DNA of 64,000 nucleotides from an uncultured Candidatus Saccharibacteria bacterium. GTDB lineage: Bacteria > Patescibacteriota > Minisyncoccia > Phycocordibacterales > UBA2100. The stretch is taken from the NCBI GenBank assembly GCA_964623775.1, contig CAZUVH010000002.1:110454-174453 (forward strand), written 5' to 3'. Below, piece by piece: positions 54,566 through 63,989 of the stretch. Each line of letters starts with the position of its first letter. Positions within the stretch are counted from its first letter, which is position 1. The position numbers were made by a program, and so were the translations under genes. A model generated the notes under the pieces. It worked only from the letters and a program-made list of their open reading frames with translations, was not told the DNA's origin and ran no database searches.

Positions 54566-55690
54566 TCAGCGTGTGTAGTAATCCTTGAACGCTGCGACGG
54601 CATTCGTCGCGGCGGTGAGGAGATTGTCCCGCAAGCACAGCTCATCGCAGAGCATGAAATTGCGATAGCCGATCTCATACAGCCATGCAAGCTGCTCGAA
54701 GTCGGCGTCGGAAGGAACTTCATTGATCCCGATCGAATACTTGATCACGCCGTCGACGATCGAAGGAACCTTGTTGACCACCGAGAGCATCATGCGCGAT
54801 CCTGCGATCGCGTATGGATCTTTCTCGATGATCAATTTCTGTGCCTTGAGGATCTCGTGCGGCATATCGAGTTCGACATAGAGATCACCTTTTGCTGCAC
54901 AGAGCCGAAGATTGTCGCGTTTTTTGAATTCGCGCGCGACGTACTCCATACCCTGTTTACTCTCGATCTTGAGGACTACCTCTTCGTGCTTGCCGACGAG
55001 GTCCAGGAACTCATCGACGTCGCGCTGACTCTGCACATACGAGAGGAACCAGCGCACGATTCCGTGCTTTTTTACTTTCTGGATCTTCTCGAGCTCGAGA
55101 TCGGTAAATTGATTGCCGCCGACTCTGAGCGAGGCGTCGCGGATGTGCAACGATTCGCCCACACGCACGTCGTTGTACGGGCGGCAGTTGCCGGGAAACG
55201 CGAGCTGGTGGAACCAGCCGTCACCCGGTAGTGGCGCTTCAGGCGACCCATACCACTGCTTCCCGTCGCCGAGATTCGTCAGGAATCCACTGTCGGCACC
55301 AGCCTTAAAGAGGACGGGCGTCGGTACATTGACCCTGATCGGATGGTTGAGTTCGAATGCGAGCGCATTCGGATCATCGATGACCTTCGTGACGCGAAGT
55401 TGCCGACCCTTAATGTCGAAGTAGAGCGGCACTTTCACTCCCTGCGGAATGAGCGCGAGCTGTTTGTCAAGATCGAAGGTCGTAAGCATCGCACTGTTGA
55501 GACGGATGCCGGCAAGCCGCGTATCATTGATGAATTTCCCAAAGTGAGAAAAGCTCGGTAGAAGCGTGACCATGATCTCGAGTTCTTTCGGGATCAGCGG
55601 CGACTTCGGCTTGATGAGTGTAGTACTCTTCGTTCGCGGCTCTTGTCCAAAGATTCGGTCATACATTTTACTGCTGAATAAATCTTTCAT
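54566..55690 (-). CDS. divergent pyruvate-kinase-like TIM-barrel protein (no C-terminal PK domain)
   Basis: Collinear by eye with pyruvate kinase barrel: LYFDIKGRQLR ~ LLDTKGPEIR, VLKIESKQGMEYV ~ ISKIENQEGL, AAKGDLYVEL ~ VARGDLGVEI, AQKLIIEKD ~ AQKMMIEKC; AGGAGG SD before MKDLF start. Confidence 0.45.
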   Translation of the reverse strand: MKDLFSSKMYDRIFGQEPRTKSTTLIKPKSPLIPKELEIMVTLLPSFSHFGKFINDTRLAGIRLNSAMLTTFDLDKQLALIPQGVKVPLYFDIKGRQLRVTKVIDDPNALAFELNHPIRVNVPTPVLFKAGADSGFLTNLGDGKQWYGSPEAPLPGDGWFHQLAFPGNCRPYNDVRVGESLHIRDASLRVGGNQFTDLELEKIQKVKKHGIVRWFLSYVQSQRDVDEFLDLVGKHEEVVLKIESKQGMEYVAREFKKRDNLRLCAAKGDLYVELDMPHEILKAQKLIIEKDPYAIAGSRMMLSVVNKVPSIVDGVIKYSIGINEVPSDADFEQLAWLYEIGYRNFMLCDELCLRDNLLTAATNAVAAFKDYYTR

Positions 55691-55751
55691 GATGTCCTCC
55701 TGAATGAATTTGGGGAGGGCAACTTTGCCCTCCCCTTGTTGGTTTTCAATT

Positions 55752-56747
55752 TCACCATTCGTCGGTGGGCTTGCCGGCGCCAAGACCCTTGGTCGCCGAA
55801 TTTCCCGAACGCTTTTTGGTGCCCGATACTGTATCGGGCTTCGCAAGTGCATGAACTGTCTTCAAAGACCGATACACAGTGGCGACCTGTGTTGCATTCT
55901 GCCGCCCTTCGATCTCCTTGCGGAAATAGCCGACCTTGCCGACTTCCTGCGCGAGAAGTCCGAATATGACGTCGACAGCTCGATTTGCATCGGAGAGGAG
56001 TGCGATGCGTTCCGCGCCGACAAGAGTCTTCCAGCGGTCGTAGACTTGCTGCGTGACCGCCGGCAATGTATCGCCGGAGATCCGCTCGGAGCCATATGGC
56101 TTCAGAATAATGTATAGCGAATATTTCTCCATCGTCTGTTCGACGATCTCCTCGATCGTATGAGTCTTTTCGATGACGACCCTTGCATGCTTCTTTGCAT
56201 CCACTACCGTGATGCGTGCGCACGGCATTTCATCCGTGATGATGATGTACACCGGCTTGTTTTTCGCCTTTGGCATATGCGTATTGTGGATACGGTAGAG
56301 CATCGCGAGGCCATGAGCCTCGTGATACAGTGCCGACCCGCCTCCGCCGCCGACGTGCTGAATCTTGTCGAGTTCTTTCAGCATCTCCGGCCCATCCGCA
56401 AAGGGACGCATCTGAACAGGGTAGTCGTCCTCGAGATCGCAGAAGCCACCGAAACTGATCTTTGCGTCCTCGCCGAGATATTCTTTCTTCACCTCGTGCT
56501 CGAAGTACGGAGCCTTGACGAAGAACTGCTTGTCCCAGCCATCCATAGATCCGCTACCGTCCGAATCGATGCAGCACTGGCTGTCGCTGTCGGTCGAAAT
56601 GGAATCAGGTAGGAGCTTGGAAGCCGGTCCCGCTAATTGCGCTTTTGCGTAGCCTCGGCCGGCGTTTACGTCGTAATTTTGTCGTGCCTGATCGAAGTTG
56701 TGACCTTTCCAGTGCGTTGCCGGTGTGTAGTCGCCGTCTTCTGACAT
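55752..56747 (-). CDS. von Willebrand factor A (vWA) domain protein, TerY-like
   Basis: MIDAS-like IDSDGSGSM motif and Rossmann-like alternating pattern. Confidence 0.6.
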   Translation of the reverse strand: MSEDGDYTPATHWKGHNFDQARQNYDVNAGRGYAKAQLAGPASKLLPDSISTDSDSQCCIDSDGSGSMDGWDKQFFVKAPYFEHEVKKEYLGEDAKISFGGFCDLEDDYPVQMRPFADGPEMLKELDKIQHVGGGGGSALYHEAHGLAMLYRIHNTHMPKAKNKPVYIIITDEMPCARITVVDAKKHARVVIEKTHTIEEIVEQTMEKYSLYIILKPYGSERISGDTLPAVTQQVYDRWKTLVGAERIALLSDANRAVDVIFGLLAQEVGKVGYFRKEIEGRQNATQVATVYRSLKTVHALAKPDTVSGTKKRSGNSATKGLGAGKPTDEW

Positions 56748-56785
56748 GTCATTCTCCTTCTATTGTCAGATGTGGGTGGGTAGAC

Positions 56786-57814
56786 TCAGGATAACCAATC
56801 TTTCCAGTTCGAGCGCGCTCTGCCGAAACTTTTCTCGCGAACCTTGTCGAATTTGGCGGAAAGTTCCGCCGCATCCCTCGGCCGGTTGAGGACGTTGTAT
56901 ACGACGAGTGATTTGATGAATTCACACATCGCGTCCGGCACATTGCTCGGCACTTGCTTCAGCCGTACCGCATCAATCTTTCCCGTCAGCGCATAGATCA
57001 TACACATACCGAGACTGTAGAGATCGGATTCGGGTACGAGCGTCTTACCCTCGATCTGTTCCGGTGGCGAGAAGATCTCCGTATAACCCTTGCTGCCGGT
57101 ATCGGCCGTCGGCTTTACCGACGAGAGTCCGAAATCGACGAGTTGTGCAATATGTTTCTCCGGCTGGAGAATGATGTTTTGCGGCTTCAAGTCCCCGTGC
57201 AAGATACCGTGACGATGGAGCCAGCCGAGTGTGTTGAGAACTCGATCAGCTATGGATGCCACGATCTCGGGGTCCCGCTTACCGTGTTTTTCGACGGCCT
57301 GTTCGAGTGTTGGGCCTTCCACCCAACTCATCACGAGCGCGAGTGCGCCATTGTCGAGCTCAATCACATCTCTCATGATTGGCAGCCCGTAGTGGCTGAG
57401 ATTCCAGATGGATTTCGCCTCTTGCTTGAGGATCTCTTCCGCAACGGGAGAGATCTCAGAACAGATCTTGACGCATGAAAGCTCGTCCAGCAGCTGATGC
57501 TGGGCTTTGTACGTCACTCCGAATCCTCCTTGCGCCACTTTGGCGATCTTGCGATAGGGACCGATCATGCCGCTTGAGTTCGACTTCGTTTTCCGATATT
57601 CATCGTATTCGCGACGCGACTTTGGATTGGCGATGATCTCATACGCTTCTGCTATCCGCTTCACATTCGATTCGGTCGCACCCGCGATGCGTGGGGCGTG
57701 AATTTTCAGAAGCGCCTTGTGAGCCACCTCAATGATCTCAATCTGGGACCTTGGATGCACCTGGAGCACCTTATAGAGATCCATATCGTACGCTGACGGA
57801 AAGGCATGGGACAT
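56786..57814 (-). CDS. Hanks-type Ser/Thr protein kinase with N-terminal degenerate J-domain
   Basis: N-terminus DLYKVLQV...KIHAPRIAG...YEIIANPKSRREYDEY matches J-domain helices with HPD replaced by HAPR; kinase motifs GGFGVTYKA, VKI, HGDLKPQNIIL, DFGLS, SPPE. Confidence 0.85.
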   Translation of the reverse strand: MSHAFPSAYDMDLYKVLQVHPRSQIEIIEVAHKALLKIHAPRIAGATESNVKRIAEAYEIIANPKSRREYDEYRKTKSNSSGMIGPYRKIAKVAQGGFGVTYKAQHQLLDELSCVKICSEISPVAEEILKQEAKSIWNLSHYGLPIMRDVIELDNGALALVMSWVEGPTLEQAVEKHGKRDPEIVASIADRVLNTLGWLHRHGILHGDLKPQNIILQPEKHIAQLVDFGLSSVKPTADTGSKGYTEIFSPPEQIEGKTLVPESDLYSLGMCMIYALTGKIDAVRLKQVPSNVPDAMCEFIKSLVVYNVLNRPRDAAELSAKFDKVREKSFGRARSNWKDWLS

Positions 57815-57948
57815 GAGTATCTTTCCTTATGTAGGAATCAAAGTACCTGCGGCGATACTACATCAAGAAAATGGCTTTAGTCAACGGTATAATTTGACTT
57901 TTTGGACAGTTCGTGTTTGATGCGCGCAGATCAAAAAGGGAGACCGCC

Positions 57949-58764
57949 ATGCCTTTGCGAGGTATCGTGAAAAAGGCGCAGGATCAGGGGCCGCGCAGCT
58001 ATCAGGAGGATTTCATCGTTCACATTCCATTCGATCTCCCCCATGAACGGGGACACCTTATTGGCGTGTTCGATGGTCATGGCGGCGTAGATGCCGCCAA
58101 AGTGTGCGCAGCAGCGACGCCAAAATTCTTTTCTCCAAATGGCAATGACGACGCGGGAGAACTGCTGCGTCATCTTGTTGGTGAACTGAATGTGCTCACG
58201 TGCGAAATGCAATGCGGGACGACGGTGTCGCTCGCGTGCATCCTCGAAACGAGCCGTACGGTGGTAACTGCGACACTTGGCGACTCACCGATCGTCGTTC
58301 GTGATGTGAATGGATTGATCCGGACGAACAATCCGCACAATGTACGGTCGAATGAATCAGAGCGTCGAACGGCAATTTTGCGGGGTGGTTGGTACAACGA
58401 CGAGGATGGCTACCTCGTCGACGCCAATGACCGCGACGGTCCCGGTCTTCAAACGACGCGCGGTCTTGGGGACCGTTGGCTTGGTAAAGTACTCAGCCGT
58501 GAACCGGAGATCGAAACGTACGGCATTGGGGACACAAGCGCGATCATCGTCGGCTCGGATGGCTTAATGGAACCGGAACGTCTTAATCGCTACGTGCGAC
58601 GCAAAGGCACAACTGATGCGAAACTATTCCTTGAGATGACGAACGCTGCTACGCAGGTCTCGAGCGCACGCGGACTAATCGATTGGAGAAAATCTCAGGA
58701 TGAGCTTGACGACAACACCTCCGCGATCGTCTGGCGTCCACGCCGTTGGTGGGAATTGTTCTGA
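57949..58764 (+). CDS. PP2C family Ser/Thr protein phosphatase
   Basis: GVFDGHGG, LGDS, RGLGD, VGSDGL metal-binding motifs; GGGAG SD before MPLRGI. Confidence 0.85.
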   Translation: MPLRGIVKKAQDQGPRSYQEDFIVHIPFDLPHERGHLIGVFDGHGGVDAAKVCAAATPKFFSPNGNDDAGELLRHLVGELNVLTCEMQCGTTVSLACILETSRTVVTATLGDSPIVVRDVNGLIRTNNPHNVRSNESERRTAILRGGWYNDEDGYLVDANDRDGPGLQTTRGLGDRWLGKVLSREPEIETYGIGDTSAIIVGSDGLMEPERLNRYVRRKGTTDAKLFLEMTNAATQVSSARGLIDWRKSQDELDDNTSAIVWRPRRWWELF

Positions 58765-58815: not shown

Positions 58816-58848
58816 AAAAAAAAGACCCCGATCAATTTGATCGGGGTC
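58816..58848 (-). terminator. intrinsic terminator (gaccccgatc-aattt-gatcggggtc) of kinase-like gene 58858..60594
   Basis: Perfect 10-bp stem followed on minus strand by T8. Confidence 0.65.
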
Positions 58849-58857
58849 AAAGAACAA

Positions 58858-60594
58858 TTACCTCATCCGCAAGCTCCACACGGCACCGTTGTGGATGTAC
58901 ATGACTTTGTCATCCCAATTGGCGAGTGCCATGTCGGTTGCAACCTGCTTATCCTTGATCTTGTTCACCGTACCGCTTCGCGGCACGAAGATCACAAGCT
59001 CGCCGTCTTCGACGATGGTAGCGCACACACCTTTTGGCAGTATCGCGATGTTCAGATCGGCATTGTCCGTGCCTCCCTGCCACAGCGTATAACTGCTGTA
59101 ATCAGCGCTGAAGCTGAGCTCGAATTTCCGGAATGCACCGGTTTTGTCGATTCCTGCGAGTGAGACGAAGCGGTTGCCCGCTTTGCCCGCAAGCAGCTTT
59201 ATGCCATCGAGCTCTCGCACACGCACCGAGATACAGGCACTTTCGCCAAATGGCAGCACGAGGAACTGTGCGCCGAGCGCATCCTGAACTCCGACGCCGT
59301 CGTACCATTTTGTGGACTGCGGCGAGAGAATCTGAGTGCGCCGTCCGATCGAAAGGAGCGGGCGACCCACCTGCAGAAGCTGCAACTCCATCAATTCGCT
59401 TTCGGCGACAAGGAACAGACGGTTTTCAAAACGCACCGTCTTGTAACCGTTTTGCGCGAGCGGAAGCGATTGCTGCACACGCGTGCGATCGTCGATGAAT
59501 GAGTATGCCGGTTTCCCGAGGACCCAGTCAGCGAGCAGCCATCCATTTTCGACTTTGACGACTTCGCCGTTGCCCGAGCTCATGCGTCCGATATCACGCT
59601 TGGTGGTGAGATCGACCACGATACCCGAGGCAAGAAGCACCGCACCGCACGGATAGATCCGTACGACAGCATCGCCTGCTTTTTCGAATATCTTTTCGAA
59701 CACGAGCGCTCCTGTAGCCGTCGTCGTGACCCTGAGAGTTCGGGCTGCCGCAGGAATTGCTGCGACGCCCTTATCGTAGGGTGATGGCGGCACTGTGCGC
59801 ACGCCTTTTTCAAATGTCGCTTCGTACCAACCGAGGAGGGCATTCGGAACGCATTTGAAATCGCGTACTGCCGCGTTGAGCCCTACACCATTGTGGAAGA
59901 CTGAGGCGTTCGCTTTCATTCGCGCTTCCATATCGCCCGGCTTAAATCCGCTGAGTGATCCCCGGTACGGATGGATGCCCGTGAATATCTGGAAGGTCAC
60001 GATTCCCCATGAGAACCAGTCAGAGAGTTTCGTGTATCCATTTGTATGCCAATCTTTGATGGACGGCATGATTGCTTTCGGACCAAATCGGCCGACAGCC
60101 CATGAATCCACATCAATGGCACGCGGCTCCGGGCCGTTTTTGCCTGCGAGGAACGCAATCCAGTTGAGCTCATTGGCATCGACCATGACCGCATTTCGAT
60201 CATGCGCGAAGACAGTCGTCTCGTGCATACGAGCGACAAGTGTATGTGCTTCACCATCACCAAACTTTTCGCGATTGCGAAACGCGTTGGTGAAGATGCG
60301 AGGCAGTGCCTCACCTTCCGCCCACGGCATGTAGATGCCGATCGGCTTACCCTTACCATCAGTCACGACGCCTTCCGGTGCCATGATGTACTGATGCTTG
60401 AGAGGCTTCAGCAGCTGGATCTTCTCCGCAATGCCGTCGCGTCGCATCTTGTCGGGATCAGTGTAGAGCTTAATGCTCGTACCCAAAGAGCGGTAGACCG
60501 ATGCTTCTCCGCCGCTCGCGACATAGTCGCTCGGGCGAAGTGTCAACGGTCCACGACCTTCGAGTTCTACTTTCAGGTTTCCACTTGGAGCCAT
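58858..60594 (-). CDS. atypical protein-kinase-like protein with about 330-aa C-terminal domain
   Basis: Gly loop ASGGEASVY, Lys in SIKLY, DANELN catalytic-loop-like, IDVDSW (DFG position), DWFSWGIVTFQIFTGIHPY (subdomain IX-like); C-terminal region of unknown fold. Confidence 0.55.
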   Translation of the reverse strand: MAPSGNLKVELEGRGPLTLRPSDYVASGGEASVYRSLGTSIKLYTDPDKMRRDGIAEKIQLLKPLKHQYIMAPEGVVTDGKGKPIGIYMPWAEGEALPRIFTNAFRNREKFGDGEAHTLVARMHETTVFAHDRNAVMVDANELNWIAFLAGKNGPEPRAIDVDSWAVGRFGPKAIMPSIKDWHTNGYTKLSDWFSWGIVTFQIFTGIHPYRGSLSGFKPGDMEARMKANASVFHNGVGLNAAVRDFKCVPNALLGWYEATFEKGVRTVPPSPYDKGVAAIPAAARTLRVTTTATGALVFEKIFEKAGDAVVRIYPCGAVLLASGIVVDLTTKRDIGRMSSGNGEVVKVENGWLLADWVLGKPAYSFIDDRTRVQQSLPLAQNGYKTVRFENRLFLVAESELMELQLLQVGRPLLSIGRRTQILSPQSTKWYDGVGVQDALGAQFLVLPFGESACISVRVRELDGIKLLAGKAGNRFVSLAGIDKTGAFRKFELSFSADYSSYTLWQGGTDNADLNIAILPKGVCATIVEDGELVIFVPRSGTVNKIKDKQVATDMALANWDDKVMYIHNGAVWSLRMR

Positions 60595-61442
60595 CAGACG
60601 TCTCCTTCTTGGTGTTCGACGCGCACCATCGCATAGGCGATGTCGTCGAGCGGCCCTTTGCCTACCTTGCGCGCGTCTTTAACAAACGCATTCAGGCGTC
60701 GTTTAACGAAGACGCCTTCGACACCTTTGAACGCGAGCAGTTGCAGCACTACGTCTTTCCAATCCACTCCCTCGACCTGCGTGACGCCGTCGCTGAATAC
60801 AGCGACAAATGAGACTTGTTCCGGTGACAGATTCAAGGTAACACCCTGAATTCCCGCCGCGACCGTCAATTCACTTGCGAATGACTCTCCGGTCGATTTA
60901 TTCCACGTTTCCCATCTGAGCGCCTGCTTATATGCACCACCGTGAGTCTTTATGAATGACTCGTATCCGTCGGTACTGTAGGCAGGATAGAGAGGAGTAT
61001 TGTTGGTCCAATCGAAACGATGGAGAAACATCTCCCCATTCCTAAAAATGACCGCAACGACACCGTCGCCGCGAACATTTACAACGCATGTCTCTTGTGA
61101 CATGGCCACATACGAACACGTGGCAAGCATGTCACTCGTCTCAAGCTGAAGCTTGTTTTTCACAGCGTTCATAGTGCTCTGCTGATGGTCATTGATGAAC
61201 CCTGCCGCATCAAGAGAGAGTAAAAACGATTGCCAATTCTTACGAATCGCCGTTGCCGTCGTATGGGTCACTATTCGCGCACCCACATCGGTGTGTCCAC
61301 CACTTGAGCACCCGTCGGAGACGATCGCGTATGCGACGCCATCGTGAATTCCTGAGAGCGAGTGATCCTGACATGGTTTGCCGGAGATCACGTGATGGTG
61401 ACCGATCAGGAAGTGATCATCCGTATGGAATTTCAACTTCAT
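60594..61442 (-). CDS. PP2C-like phosphatase
   Basis: CQD..., VSDGCSSGGHTD (DGxGG-like), VRGDGVV, VFSDGV motifs in PPM order. Confidence 0.55.
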   Translation of the reverse strand: MKLKFHTDDHFLIGHHHVISGKPCQDHSLSGIHDGVAYAIVSDGCSSGGHTDVGARIVTHTTATAIRKNWQSFLLSLDAAGFINDHQQSTMNAVKNKLQLETSDMLATCSYVAMSQETCVVNVRGDGVVAVIFRNGEMFLHRFDWTNNTPLYPAYSTDGYESFIKTHGGAYKQALRWETWNKSTGESFASELTVAAGIQGVTLNLSPEQVSFVAVFSDGVTQVEGVDWKDVVLQLLAFKGVEGVFVKRRLNAFVKDARKVGKGPLDDIAYAMVRVEHQEGDV

Positions 61443-61513
61443 TGCATTTCCCCTTCTTCAGAAAAGAATAAGGGAGGGAGCTGTGCCCCCTCCCCGTGGT
61501 TGCCGGCCATCGA

Positions 61514-62269
61514 TCAGATGGCGGCGGCGATAGCTTGACTTGGTCCGCCCGTGCCCTGCGCGAGCGCCTGGCTCGAGACAGACTGCGAGACGAACGCGGC
61601 GAGCTTCGCGAGATTGCGCTCGGTCGCGTCGCCGGCCTTCCGATAGTGCGTCATGCCGGTCTTCTGCTGGAACGCCTGCAACGTCGCATCGTACTGGTCG
61701 GTATTGATGCCGACGAGAATCGAGATCAGGGATTCGAGCTTCTCGCTCGTGACCGCCTGCTCGAGCGCCTTCTTCAGTGCCGCTTCCGTCATCGTGGAAT
61801 CGAGCTCTGCACCATCAGAGAAGGTGAAGAGGATTCCATTCGCTCCGTAGTCGTTCTTCGCAAGCTCCTCGGCGTAGGTCAGTGTCGCTCCGACGCCTGA
61901 ATAACAGCCGTCGATAAGCGGAGTGCCACCGCCGATCTTGATGGAATCGTAGACAGTTTCGTCGATGTCCGCGAGTGGCTTGAAGCCATGGATCTCGATG
62001 ACACCCTTGTCGGCTCGCGTGGTAAACACGATTGCACGCACCATGATGTTGTCGGACATCGGATTCTTGCGACAGGCACCGACGGCCATCTTGACCATCT
62101 TGATGATTTCACCCCGGTACGGGATGACCGAGCTGCTGCCGTCGATCGCGAAGGTGACGAGCGTGTAGGTGCTCGCGCCGAGCCTGTCGAAGCGAGCGCC
62201 GGTAAATGCGAATCCGCCTTTGCCCGCGATGTTGAATTCCTGCATATCGTCTTGGTCGAGACGAGGCAT
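61514..62269 (-). CDS. vWA domain protein, TerY-like
   Basis: Start at MPRLDQDD with AAGGAGAT SD; MIDAS VTFAIDGSSSV; vWA-like alternating pattern. Confidence 0.6.
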   Translation of the reverse strand: MPRLDQDDMQEFNIAGKGGFAFTGARFDRLGASTYTLVTFAIDGSSSVIPYRGEIIKMVKMAVGACRKNPMSDNIMVRAIVFTTRADKGVIEIHGFKPLADIDETVYDSIKIGGGTPLIDGCYSGVGATLTYAEELAKNDYGANGILFTFSDGAELDSTMTEAALKKALEQAVTSEKLESLISILVGINTDQYDATLQAFQQKTGMTHYRKAGDATERNLAKLAAFVSQSVSSQALAQGTGGPSQAIAAAI

Positions 62270-62352: not shown

Positions 62353-63270
62353 TTACGCGAGGAAGTCGGTCGACTTCATCAGCGTCATGCCGCGCGCTTC
62401 CATGTCTTTCAGGAATTGCGCTGCGATGGCGGGGAAGTCGACGACATTCGGGATCGCCGGTACGGGCGACATACAGTCGGTGAGAAGAATCATCTTCTTC
62501 ACGTGCTCGTCGCCGATGTTGTCGGCGATCTGCTCGACGGTACGCTTCACACAATGACTCGATGCCCAGCCCGCGACGCCGATCATATCGGCCTTCTGGA
62601 GCGTAGTAACGAGTCCCCCGTTCAGCTGCGTCGAAGGATCGTCCGGATCGACGACTTCCGCCATGAGGCCGCCGAAGTGCTCGCGCCACACGTTGGAACC
62701 CTTGGTGACCTTATTGGCAACACCCATGTACTTGCGTTCCCAACGCGTAACGGCGGCTTCGACATCGGACTGGACTCCGTGGCCCCACGTGCCGATACGG
62801 CAGTGCGGCGGCCAGATCGTGTGCTTGAAGGGACTTGTTGCTTCGAGCGCGACAAGATATTCCTGCTGGCGTTTTTGGTAAGCCGGATTGCGAGCGCGCC
62901 ACATGCCGGCCTTCATGTTGTCGGCCGTGATCATGGTGAACGGCCCCGGCGGTCTGCCGTTGTCGTCGCGCCACATATCAGGATGTCCGATATGCATCAC
63001 ATGATGCGAGTCGAGCGTTTCGTGGATGTCGTTCAGTTTGTGACCGACGCGATCGATAAGCGCCGCGAGGCGCTTGGCATCGGAAACAGCGCCCTTGACG
63101 GGGAGTGCCGCGACGTTCAGGGTCGAAGGAAGATCCTTGACCTTCATGTCGGACGAACGGATGTCACCACTGAGAATCGTCTCGGTGAGCGGACTGCCGT
63201 CGTCGTTGCCCATGAAGTCGTTCTGCGGGTCGACGATGAAAAGGTCGACCTTGAGAGTGCCTCTCGACAT
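62353..63270 (-). CDS. isochorismatase-family cysteine hydrolase (nicotinamidase-like)
   Basis: DLFIVDPQNDFMG N-terminal motif and catalytic-Cys region GWASSHCVKRTV. Confidence 0.55.
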   Translation of the reverse strand: MSRGTLKVDLFIVDPQNDFMGNDDGSPLTETILSGDIRSSDMKVKDLPSTLNVAALPVKGAVSDAKRLAALIDRVGHKLNDIHETLDSHHVMHIGHPDMWRDDNGRPPGPFTMITADNMKAGMWRARNPAYQKRQQEYLVALEATSPFKHTIWPPHCRIGTWGHGVQSDVEAAVTRWERKYMGVANKVTKGSNVWREHFGGLMAEVVDPDDPSTQLNGGLVTTLQKADMIGVAGWASSHCVKRTVEQIADNIGDEHVKKMILLTDCMSPVPAIPNVVDFPAIAAQFLKDMEARGMTLMKSTDFLA

Positions 63271-63443
63271 AGTGCTTCTCCAAGCTTGCAAGACCCGTTC
63301 AACTTCGGTGGGTCTTATAACCGTTTGTATTTCAAAGAACCTTGGTCCATGCCATATGCACTGACCTAGTGTATAAAATACACTAAGTAAAATACATTGC
63401 AAGGAGCTGCAGAAATCTACAATATTCGTCTAAAATGTCAACC

Positions 63444-63482
63444 AAAAAGAGCGGCCGCCTTACGGAGAGTAAGGCGGCCGCG
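63444..63482 (-). terminator. intrinsic terminator (gcggccgcctta-cggagag-taaggcggccgc)
   Basis: 12-bp perfect stem followed on minus strand by tcttttt. Confidence 0.65.
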
Positions 63483-63491
63483 TATGTAAAG

Positions 63492-63989
63492 TTACGGGCG
63501 TTTTGCGACGAGACGTGCTGCTTCGGAGATGATCTGTGTTGTCGAGGTGTGCTCGACGACATCACGAATAATCTTGATCTTGCCGGCGTGTTCCCTCCCG
63601 ACGATTTCCGCTTCCCGACCGACAAAAGCATCGTTTTTGAAAATAAAGTCGGGCTTTATGATGCGCGAAATCGTCCCATGATCGGCAAGGGAATGCATGA
63701 TGAATGCGAAGGCGACAGGCTTCAGCGCGTCTACCATCTGGACACGACGGGAGTCGTAAATGATGGGACGCCCTTCACCTTTCCGCTCACGTACCAATTC
63801 ATCAGAATCGATCCCGACGAAAAGAATGTCGCAGTCGCGCCGGCACCGCGTGAAAAAAAGCACGTGGTGATAGTGCAGGAGATCGTACGAACCGGTCGCG
63901 AGGCCGACAGACTTGCCCGACATACGCGCCTGATTGAGATACGTCTCGATGACGCTGATAGCATCCGTGTCGTGAAGATCGAATTGCAT
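63492..63989 (-). CDS. cytidylyltransferase-like nucleotidyltransferase (HxGH family)
   Basis: GLATGSYDLLHYHHV (HxGH-type motif) in a 165-aa Rossmann-like protein. Confidence 0.6.
   Translation of the reverse strand: MQFDLHDTDAISVIETYLNQARMSGKSVGLATGSYDLLHYHHVLFFTRCRRDCDILFVGIDSDELVRERKGEGRPIIYDSRRVQMVDALKPVAFAFIMHSLADHGTISRIIKPDFIFKNDAFVGREAEIVGREHAGKIKIIRDVVEHTSTTQIISEAARLVAKRP

Follow-up and report, generated by a model that had tools for sequence, protein, structure and literature searches.

For what purpose does an uncultured Candidatus Saccharibacteria bacterium encode a protein kinase that departs from the canonical catalytic signature and carries a large second domain? The question is raised by an open reading frame (ORF) in a 64,000-nt stretch of its DNA (contig CAZUVH010000002.1 of assembly GCA_964623775.1, positions 110,454 to 174,453), hereafter the window. 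The ORF is 578 codons long and runs uninterrupted over exactly 58858..60594 on the minus strand, the plus-strand frame of the same interval being riddled with stops. As judged from its sequence, it probably encodes a divergent Ser/Thr kinase of the YegI-like branch that is an active enzyme, and the gene is the last of a four-gene operon for a PncA-like nicotinamidase, a TerY/YegL-like von Willebrand factor A (vWA) protein, a PP2C-type phosphatase and the kinase, which ends in a beta-propeller. Comparison of this cassette across genomes suggests, with moderate confidence, a TerY-P-like kinase/phosphatase/vWA phospho-switch dedicated to nicotinamide salvage. The kinase protein is divided as follows.

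59770..60594, minus strand: predicted kinase domain (aa 1-275), divergent Hanks-type Ser/Thr kinase of the YegI-like branch, assigned from the model, profiles and conservation.
59737..59769, minus strand: flexible linker (aa 276-286), with a pLDDT (predicted local distance difference test) score below 50 at residues 276-286.
58861..59736, minus strand: C-terminal seven-bladed beta-propeller (aa 287-578), 28 strands (7 x 4).

A first-pass annotation made from the DNA letters had proposed an atypical protein-kinase-like protein, and all the kinase-like landmarks that it quoted are present in the minus-strand translation of 58858..60594: the glycine loop SGGEASVY (aa 27-34), SIKLY with K42, MVDANELN with D139 and N144, IDVDSW with D161 and D163 (a D-x-D at the DFG position), and the subdomain IX segment DWFSWGIVTFQIFTG (aa 192-206). 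These motifs are not chance matches, because they are invariant or nearly so in 115 non-redundant relatives. Structure prediction and fold search of both halves agree with the proposal in that the N-terminal half adopts a kinase-like fold, and reveal a seven-bladed beta-propeller in the C-terminal half. The AlphaFold2 model, built on 35 sequences, has a mean pLDDT of 85.5 and consists of two domains joined by the disordered linker 276-286. Residues 1-275 form a bilobal eukaryotic-type kinase fold (pLDDT 85-94 over aa 10-270), for which Foldseek retrieves from the PDB the eukaryotic-type kinases ULK1, PknS, IRAK4, PKA and FGFR2, with template modeling (TM) scores of about 0.6 (normalized to the target) to ULK1, FGFR2, CSK and CaMKII at a probability of 1.00.

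Profile comparisons place this domain near Escherichia coli YegI. The hhalign alignment of the family profile with YegI has a probability of 96.5%, an E of 9e-10 and a score of 80.5, and spans aa 7-216 of the window kinase and 2-226 of YegI; the corresponding values for the window's own canonical Hanks kinase, whose gene is 1 kb distant, are 82.7%, 1e-5 and 48.5. The family profile also matches solved kinases (E ~1e-4), and the Pfam kinase family PF00069 is a precomputed match in many relatives. When the single kinase sequence is searched against PDB sequences, the match is confined to the subdomain IX stretch (E 0.05), and scanning the four proteins of the cassette against NCBIfam, PHROGs and PADLOC yielded no informative match beyond a weak mad6 match for the kinase. 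Homologues are numerous: 740 matches were found among 8000 candidates scored (90% clusters), the best 120 of which are all about 577 aa long and more than 50% identical, and a profile search of 50% representatives yielded 931 clusters at E <1e-30, nearly all with the same full-length architecture.

The active site is built of a GGE(A/G)SVY loop, K42, the catalytic loop VD139-A-N-E-L-N144, D161-V-D-S-W in the place of DFG, and D192-W-F-S-W-G in subdomain IX. The catalytic loop thus reads M-V-D and the metal loop D-V-D, in place of the canonical HRD and DFG triplets. The absence of a canonical HRD had been pointed out in the first-pass annotation; the triplet does not occur in the translation, and the same holds for YegI, which is an active kinase (10.1101/819920). 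Conservation was assessed in the 115 non-redundant members, which come from bacteria of the candidate phyla radiation (CPR), Proteobacteria and phages and have 33-73% identity in the kinase domain. G28, G29, H131, D139, N141, D161, D181, D192, H208, P209 and R266 are invariant (115/115), and K42 (114/115), N144 (110/115), D163 (108/115) and S164 (108/115) are nearly so. This conserved pattern of catalytic residues points to an active enzyme rather than a pseudokinase.

Several of these deviations have been analyzed in YegI itself, an active Ser/Thr kinase that prefers Mn2+ (Rajagopalan and Dworkin, 10.1101/819920). YegI has VGDxxQxS and DSD instead of HRD and DFG, and DFG cannot substitute for DSD; it has Asp at the position of the alpha-C Glu, yet is active; and it requires Ser-162 for activity and autophosphorylates on serine (10.1101/819920). 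The window kinase resembles YegI in its GGEG-type glycine loop, in the absence of His-Arg from the catalytic loop and in having D-x-D-S-[W/F] at the DFG position; its S164 aligns with Ser-162. In both cases a PP2C_2 phosphatase gene, whose stop overlaps the kinase start, and a vWA gene precede the kinase gene; in E. coli B and several pathogenic strains, but not in K-12, yegI overlaps the 3' end of pphC by ATGA (10.1101/819920). The two proteins differ in that the canonical Asn (N144), retained in the window family, is replaced by Ser in YegI, and in that YegI contains two transmembrane segments (10.1101/819920), whereas the window kinase is soluble and ends in a propeller. The alignment stops at aa 216 of the window kinase and 226 of YegI.

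As for the C-terminal half, the first-pass annotation had stated that about 330 aa match no recognized family. Pfam is indeed blank for this half, and neither WD40 sequence repeats (GH...WD) nor a Pfam repeat family was matched there; its length and character are revised, in that it contains a structured domain of about 290 aa (287-578). In the AlphaFold2 model residues 287-578 form seven blades, each of four antiparallel strands (28 strands in total), and the model contains no membrane helices. Foldseek retrieves assorted propellers from the PDB for this half, and identity to solved propellers is 6-12%. The propeller diverges faster than the kinase domain, falling to 22-25% identity in distant members. 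The best full-length Foldseek matches are LRRK2 and LRRK1, in which a kinase is likewise followed by WD40 repeats and with which both domains align (E 1.7e-10). Identity to these large multi-domain eukaryotic proteins with ROC-COR GTPase domains is 10-12%, and the likeness is architectural and is not taken to indicate a shared ancestry of the fusion.

Promoter, operator and terminator bracket all four genes of the operon, which are listed here with the associated signals.

63414..63441, minus strand: putative sigma-70-like promoter by consensus match (TTGACA, 16-nt spacer, TAGATT; 10 of 12 hexamer positions).
63366..63386, no strand assigned: candidate NrtR operator, the 21-bp palindrome CTAGTGTATAAAATACACTAA with a GT-N7-AC core, between the promoter and gene 1.
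62353..63270, minus strand: gene 1, predicted nicotinamidase (PncA)-like hydrolase of the isochorismatase superfamily, 305 aa, from the family profile.
61514..62269, minus strand: gene 2, TerY/YegL-like vWA protein, 251 aa, from the alignment and the metal ion-dependent adhesion site (MIDAS).
61471..61495, minus strand: GC-rich hairpin with a T-rich run after it, located in the vWA-PP2C intergenic interval, from a scan for terminator-like elements.
60594..61442, minus strand: gene 3, PP2C-type phosphatase (PP2C_2, PF13672), 282 aa, Pfam E 1.2e-17.
58824..58848, minus strand: intrinsic terminator, GACCCCGATCAAATTGATCGGGGTC and then T8, starting 10 nt past the kinase stop codon.

The putative promoter closely follows the preceding gene's own terminator (63451-63481). 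That gene, at 63492-63989, encodes a 165-aa cytidylyltransferase-like protein (PF01467); homologues of it adjoin the cassette in several related loci (L013, L030, L038, L039 and L046; related loci are identified by L numbers throughout), and it differs from the NadD-like protein described below.

The assignment of gene 1 rests on its family profile, which matches solved nicotinamidases with E values of 5e-8, 3e-7 and 3e-5. The Pfam family Isochorismatase is matched by 10 of 16 family members and not by the window copy. D14, K190 and C240, together with D87, H89 and H156, are invariant in the 16 sequences; the former align with the Asp-Lys-Cys triad of PncA and the latter with its Asp/His/His metal site. 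Gene 1 is thus predicted to encode a nicotinamidase with an isochorismatase fold that keeps both the triad and the metal ligands, and is enlarged by an insert of some 55 aa and by an extension at the C terminus.

A vWA gene next to the kinase had been mentioned in the first-pass annotation, and the product of gene 2 does carry the DxSxS...T...D residues of a complete MIDAS (D43-x-S45-x-S47, T116 and D152), as well as a conserved Ser/Gln-rich C-terminal tail (FVSQSVSSQ...GTGGPSQ), in an alignment with 13 relatives and E. coli YegL. Pairwise BLASTP found no similarity between it and YegL, and Pfam VWA/VWA_2 matched 3 of 15 sequences in a set that includes YegL itself. The product of gene 3 belongs to the same Pfam family, PP2C_2, as E. 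coli PphC (YegK), to which its BLASTP similarity is weak (E 0.006). The hairpin at 61471-61495 is possibly an internal attenuator; attenuated read-through could leave the nicotinamidase and vWA protein in excess over the phosphatase and kinase. Genes 3 and 4 are closely joined, as had been supposed from their abutting start and stop codons on the same strand: the TGA of the PP2C gene and the ATG of the kinase gene have base 60594 in common (...GGAGACGTCTGATGG...), with GGAG 8 nt upstream. This 1-nt overlap supports the suggested co-translation, and an abutting or overlapping junction is also found in other genomes.

The association of the four genes is nearly obligate. One genome per species was scanned for kinase relatives, and the closest 80 of at least 549 loci were analyzed. 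Among the 70 kinase-seeded loci with enough upstream DNA, 69 have the nicotinamidase-like, vWA, PP2C and kinase genes in this order; the last three directly follow one another on the same strand both in the window and in 69 of the 70 related loci. The reverse search, seeded in metagenomes with the nicotinamidase-like protein, gave 33 loci with 4.3 kb or more of DNA downstream, and every one of them has the vWA, PP2C and kinase genes there. Because the 80 loci are the closest relatives, the linkage holds for this nicotinamidase subfamily and not for PncA generally. The exception is a Bacteriovoracaceae metagenome-assembled genome (MAG; L083:2551-9710), in which the order is vWA, nicotinate phosphoribosyltransferase (NAPRTase), NadE, PP2C, NadD-like, small membrane protein and kinase; a nicotinamidase-like gene was not detected within this locus.

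Genes of nicotinamide adenine dinucleotide (NAD) metabolism recur around the cassette. In the 80 loci, an NrtR-type regulator (Nudix plus winged helix) is encoded nearby in 42, NAD synthetase (NadE) in 26, a cytidylyltransferase-like (NadD-like) protein in 15, NAD kinase in 13, NAPRTase in 9 and ADP-ribosylglycohydrolase in 6. In Rhodoferax, Agitococcus and other Proteobacteria nrtR is divergent from the cassette, as in L084, where nrtR is followed in the opposite direction by the cassette, a NAPRTase-like gene and nadE. NAPRTase, NadE or NadD-like genes lie between the cassette genes in L083 and in the IMG/VR loci L173, L175, L179 and L186. In plasmid 2 of Variovorax sp. SRS16 (L085, NZ_LR594667.1 609036-626373), the PP2C gene as annotated in RefSeq is followed by a "hypothetical protein" gene, which is the kinase, and directly downstream by pncB, with a NADAR protein and NAD+ synthase also encoded nearby. 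The nicotinamidase-like and vWA profiles match no ORF within this 17-kb stretch; the 304-aa hypothetical protein whose gene lies upstream of that for PP2C is perhaps a diverged partner.

The candidate operator strengthens this connection. NrtR operators are 21-bp palindromes with a GT-N7-AC core, and ADP-ribose frees NrtR from DNA (Rodionov et al., 2008, PMC2330246). The window palindrome fits this description and is thus a candidate site; when up to 3 mismatches are allowed, no second site in the 64 kb matches, and shuffled sequence would give 0.06 matches. In 2.1 Mb of related loci there are 100 sites with no more than 2 mismatches to the motif [TA]TAGTGTA-N5-TACACTA[AT], compared with about 1 match expected by our own estimate under equal base frequencies. 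Where a recognized gene lies within 300 bp downstream, the sites precede nicotinamidase-like genes (46), nrtR (10), nadE (5), NAD kinase genes (3) and nadD-like genes (3). As a side observation, TTAGTGTA-N5-TACACTAA describes a candidate NrtR regulon in Patescibacteria, with sites in loci from L005 to L167 (e.g., L034:11266, L043:5280, L044:5236 and L112:5872), and about 36 more such sites were counted beyond those assigned to these genes.

The arrangement resembles the described pncA-pncB(-nadE) operons under NrtR, in which the nicotinamidase gene is first behind a 21-bp GT-N7-AC palindrome (PMC2330246), nrtR frequently lies beside it or is transcribed divergently, and pncB and nadE come after it, as in L084 and Variovorax. 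It differs in that described NrtR regulons contain metabolic and transport genes only (PMC2330246), whereas here three signaling genes follow the nicotinamidase gene and, where pncB/nadE come next, stand between it and these genes. The nicotinamidase also differs from the PncA of NrtR operons by its extra insert and C-terminal extension. The NrtR-regulon genes nrtX-nrtY (PMC2330246, Table 1), whose identity is not given in the text of that paper, are not equated with the cassette. In the literature searched for NrtR and pncA/nicotinamidase together with vWA, PP2C or kinase, such an association was not found described.

Carriers of the cassette are mostly Patescibacteria, and the overall spread is patchy, covering Patescibacteria, Proteobacteria, Cyanobacteria and Bdellovibrionota. 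Besides Variovorax plasmids, the cassette is found in MAGs of Rhodoferax, Agitococcus and Thermosynechococcus and in cultured strains of Bradyrhizobium, where WP_050400458.1 and its relatives carry the annotation "hypothetical protein" throughout. In Bradyrhizobium embrapense SEMIA 6208 (L055, NZ_LFIP02000001.1 124107-141843), the cassette is located beside genes for a radical-SAM protein, an RNase T-like exonuclease and DUF1643, and is adjoined as well by genes for a HerA-like ATPase and a phage-type integrase; this set of neighbors suggests a genomic island. IMG/VR lists the matching regions of related Bradyrhizobium isolates as proviral (L169-L171).

Huge phages also carry the cassette. The curated genomes LR756511.1 (L086, 595 kb) and LR745208.1 (L087, 485 kb) encode full-length homologues of the kinase with 29% identity at 99% coverage; all four cassette genes are present in the latter, and the vWA, PP2C and kinase genes were found within the 19.7-kb stretch fetched from the former. 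Several genes are inserted between those of the cassette in these two phages, and none of them matches Pfam. Downstream, L087 has genes of the NUDIX and GmrSD-N-like kinds, and a second, Hanks-type kinase is encoded at 14840-16411 in L086. IMG/VR contains 23 contigs with the kinase, most of them with the full cassette, including contigs of 100-470 kb; some may be misclassified small genomes, as L168 is the same 411,618-bp contig as the metagenome locus L145. The best structural match in the viral database BFVD is a two-domain "Ser/Thr kinase" from a Myoviridae contig (E 6e-29).

In carrying genes that rebuild NAD, namely the cassette with pncB, nadE and nadD-like genes, these phages resemble those with the NAD+ reconstitution pathways NARP1 (Adps and Namat), NARP2 (Nampt and NMNAT) and NARP3 (PnuC and NadR-like), none of which includes a nicotinamidase, kinase, phosphatase or vWA protein, unlike the cassette. 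Jumbo phages are known to carry genes for salvage and for the Preiss-Handler route of NAD synthesis (PMC11662467). Neither the survey of NAD genes in jumbo phages nor the paper on phage G mentions kinase, phosphatase or vWA partners, although they note Preiss-Handler genes or a PncA-like protein.

A further comparison is with the TerY-P triad, in which a TerY-like vWA protein, a PP2C phosphatase and a Ser/Thr kinase are likewise encoded in one operon. This triad (Anantharaman, Iyer and Aravind, 2012) has been proposed to be a phosphorylation-dependent switch, and TerY-P was later reported as a defense system (Gao et al., 2020; both as cited in PMC11090510 and PMC4978471). According to PMC11090510, TerY-P kinases end in a zinc ribbon or, in the defense version, in an OB fold, in contrast to the beta-propeller here. 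The window family differs also by its obligatory fourth partner, the nicotinamidase-like protein, by its NAD-salvage neighbors and by the lack of a PADLOC match. The cassette is related both to YegL-PphC-YegI and to the TerY-P triad; what appears to be new is the coupling to NAD salvage, of which the literature searched gave no description.

Taken together, these relationships suggest how the cassette might operate. Cleavage of NAD would yield ADP-ribose, the established effector of the NrtR family, which at this operator would likewise release NrtR and allow the operon to be expressed. The nicotinamidase would then convert nicotinamide to nicotinate for the Preiss-Handler route (PncB, NadD and NadE). 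The kinase and the translationally coupled PP2C phosphatase would constitute a reversible phospho-switch that determines how far a partner is phosphorylated. This partner would most plausibly be the conserved Ser-rich tail of the vWA protein, which also has a MIDAS and is the likely phospho-target or adaptor, or else the nicotinamidase; the propeller would provide a sensor or docking surface. The output would be tuned nicotinamidase activity or hand-off to the next enzymes, adjusting the nicotinamide-to-nicotinate flux when NAD is consumed. We infer the role of phospho-switch because of the work on YegI/PphC and the switch concept for TerY-P, the latter as presented in PMC11090510; kinase activity, substrates, propeller ligand and direction of regulation are likewise predictions from these parallels. 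Only tentatively can a wider role be proposed, namely that the cassette represents an unrecognized, post-translationally regulated branch of NAD+ salvage, in which a dedicated phospho-switch would act on a specialized nicotinamidase under induction by NrtR/ADP-ribose, a module that CPR bacteria have in common with huge phages and with scattered members of the Proteobacteria and Cyanobacteria; in phages, with pncB, nadD and nadE, it would make up a fourth, regulated NAD+ reconstitution pathway of the Preiss-Handler type directed against NAD-depleting immunity.

Observed features are the fold, the conserved catalytic residues, the translational coupling to PP2C, the nearly obligate association of the four genes, their proximity to NAD genes and the operator motif, and these structural and contextual statements, taken alone, are held with high confidence. 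Several points weigh against a phospho-switch dedicated to nicotinamide salvage. The Pfam Pkinase score of the window protein (PF00069, 22 bits) is under the gathering threshold of 31.7 bits, and the aligned part is limited to aa 184-212 in subdomain IX. The region of the alpha-C glutamate contains no invariant acidic residue, position 57 being E/D in only 73 of 115 members. The similarity of the vWA protein to YegL is moderate (hhalign probability 65%, E 6e-5, 173 columns including the tail). No nrtR gene is present inside the 64-kb window, which stops about 600 bp past the operon promoter and holds the cytidylyltransferase-like gene in that interval. The yegL-pphC-yegI genes of E. coli are accompanied by neither a nicotinamidase gene nor NAD neighbors, and TerY-P triads accompany tellurite-resistance, McrBC/CoCoNuT and restriction/defense modules, as described in PMC11090510. 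At the level of the family, the evidence consists of sequence and model, and the named relatives are all "hypothetical proteins"; among the matches listed for the kinase, these belong to Paceibacterota, Parcubacteria and other Patescibacteria. In addition, a role in conflict would also be compatible with the scattered occurrence among phyla and with carriage by huge phages.

Other explanations can be set against this background, beginning with those that concern the enzyme. The metabolic genomic context could indicate a small-molecule kinase of the pyridine-nucleotide pathway, comparable to members of the fold of the APH/choline-kinase type, and D-x-D-S-W resembles what we take to be the ID-x-D/E motif of the small-molecule kinases of this fold, which we count in favor of this explanation. 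The protein nevertheless includes subdomains IX-XI (DWFSWG...HPY...R), which are specific to protein kinases, and all its alignments are to protein kinases; its gene is translationally coupled to that of a protein phosphatase, and its closest characterized relative, YegI, autophosphorylates on serine. Alternatively, the kinase-like domain might be a pseudokinase or scaffold that binds only nucleotide or partners, with PP2C acting on other substrates, as the absence of HRD and DFG, the sub-threshold Pfam score and the lack of an identifiable alpha-C glutamate would allow. This is opposed by the glycine loop, K42, D139, N144 and D161, which are invariant or nearly so in 115 relatives, and by the fact that YegI, which is homologous and has the same deviations, is catalytically active (10.1101/819920). 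Because of the conservation of residues and the protein-kinase-specific subdomains, both explanations seem unlikely, and the probability that we would assign to either one is very small.

The other two alternatives accept the kinase and concern what the cassette serves. In a TerY-P-type anti-phage or conflict system, the kinase-propeller protein would sense infection and the nicotinamidase-like protein would be the effector, for instance one that drains nicotinamide and thereby keeps an invader from rebuilding NAD, the NAD neighbors being secondary. The combination of vWA, PP2C and kinase is the defining TerY-P architecture, and TerY-P-like modules are reported as stand-alone defense systems (PMC11090510 and PMC4978471); the patchy distribution over four phyla, the integrase, HerA-like ATPase and exonuclease near the Bradyrhizobium cassette and the AbiV/HEPN, SocA and Fic genes near the cassette in L002 are in line with such a role. 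It is nonetheless improbable in our assessment, as PADLOC models, TerY-P included, match neither the vWA nor the PP2C protein and give only a weak mad6 match for the kinase; conservation is unusually high for defense genes, as seen in the best 120 of the 740 homologues; the operator is of the NrtR type and pncB, nadE and nadD-like genes are interleaved; phages themselves carry the cassette; and no nuclease or toxic effector is consistently linked. Phage carriage instead suits a mobile, phage-derived unit for NAD+ reconstitution, in which huge phages would employ the regulated nicotinamidase together with pncB, nadD and nadE to rebuild NAD after host NADases fire, with the bacterial copies, that of the window among them, acquired and retained in an emergency role and not for routine homeostasis. 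The full-length homologues and cassette in LR756511.1 and LR745208.1, the IMG/VR contigs of 100-470 kb, where the cassette is often interrupted by NAPRTase, NadE and NadD-like genes, and the top BFVD match to a two-domain phage kinase speak for this counter-defense role, as do the established NARP1-3 and the salvage and Preiss-Handler genes of jumbo phages (PMC11662467). The window is nevertheless cellular, as it encodes Obg, IMPDH and an M50 peptidase, and in it and most loci the cassette is under an NrtR-type operator common to housekeeping NAD genes. The phage copies are the most divergent (22-36% identity), which does not favor a recent transfer from phage to CPR bacteria, and some "viral" contigs of IMG/VR are perhaps the small genomes already mentioned. 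A counter-defense origin of this kind thus also has a low probability.

A second kinase/phosphatase set, at 54566-58764 in the window, adjoins the operon and is composed of the following genes.

57949-58764, plus strand: convergent PP2C (PF00481).
56786-57814, minus strand: DnaJ plus canonical Hanks kinase.
55752-56747, minus strand: 331-aa protein with a MIDAS-like motif (DSDGSGS), matching phrog_2971 only.
54566-55690, minus strand: 374-aa protein with a weak match to a pyruvate-kinase barrel.

The 331-aa protein was considered as a vWA protein of the same kind as that of the cassette, and this was ruled out by an hhalign probability of 0.3%. L039 likewise has the full second set next to its cassette, and the kinase and 331-aa-like genes of that set are found again in L002 and L012.

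The kinase finding itself is sound, and the interest of the locus lies mainly in the coupling of a phospho-switch to NAD salvage, which makes the function of a kinase of this type directly testable. Control of NAD salvage in bacteria is known as transcriptional, through NadR, NiaR and NrtR, and no control of nicotinamidase by Ser/Thr phosphorylation was found described in the literature searched. If the proposal of a switch dedicated to nicotinamide salvage is true, it would provide a function and a testable set of substrates for the poorly understood YegI/TerY-P kinase modules, and the cultured carriers Bradyrhizobium embrapense and Variovorax sp. SRS16 offer experimental access. It would also explain a family of "hypothetical proteins" that is widely conserved in Patescibacteria, and would add a candidate regulated module for rebuilding NAD to the contest between phages and their hosts over this cofactor.

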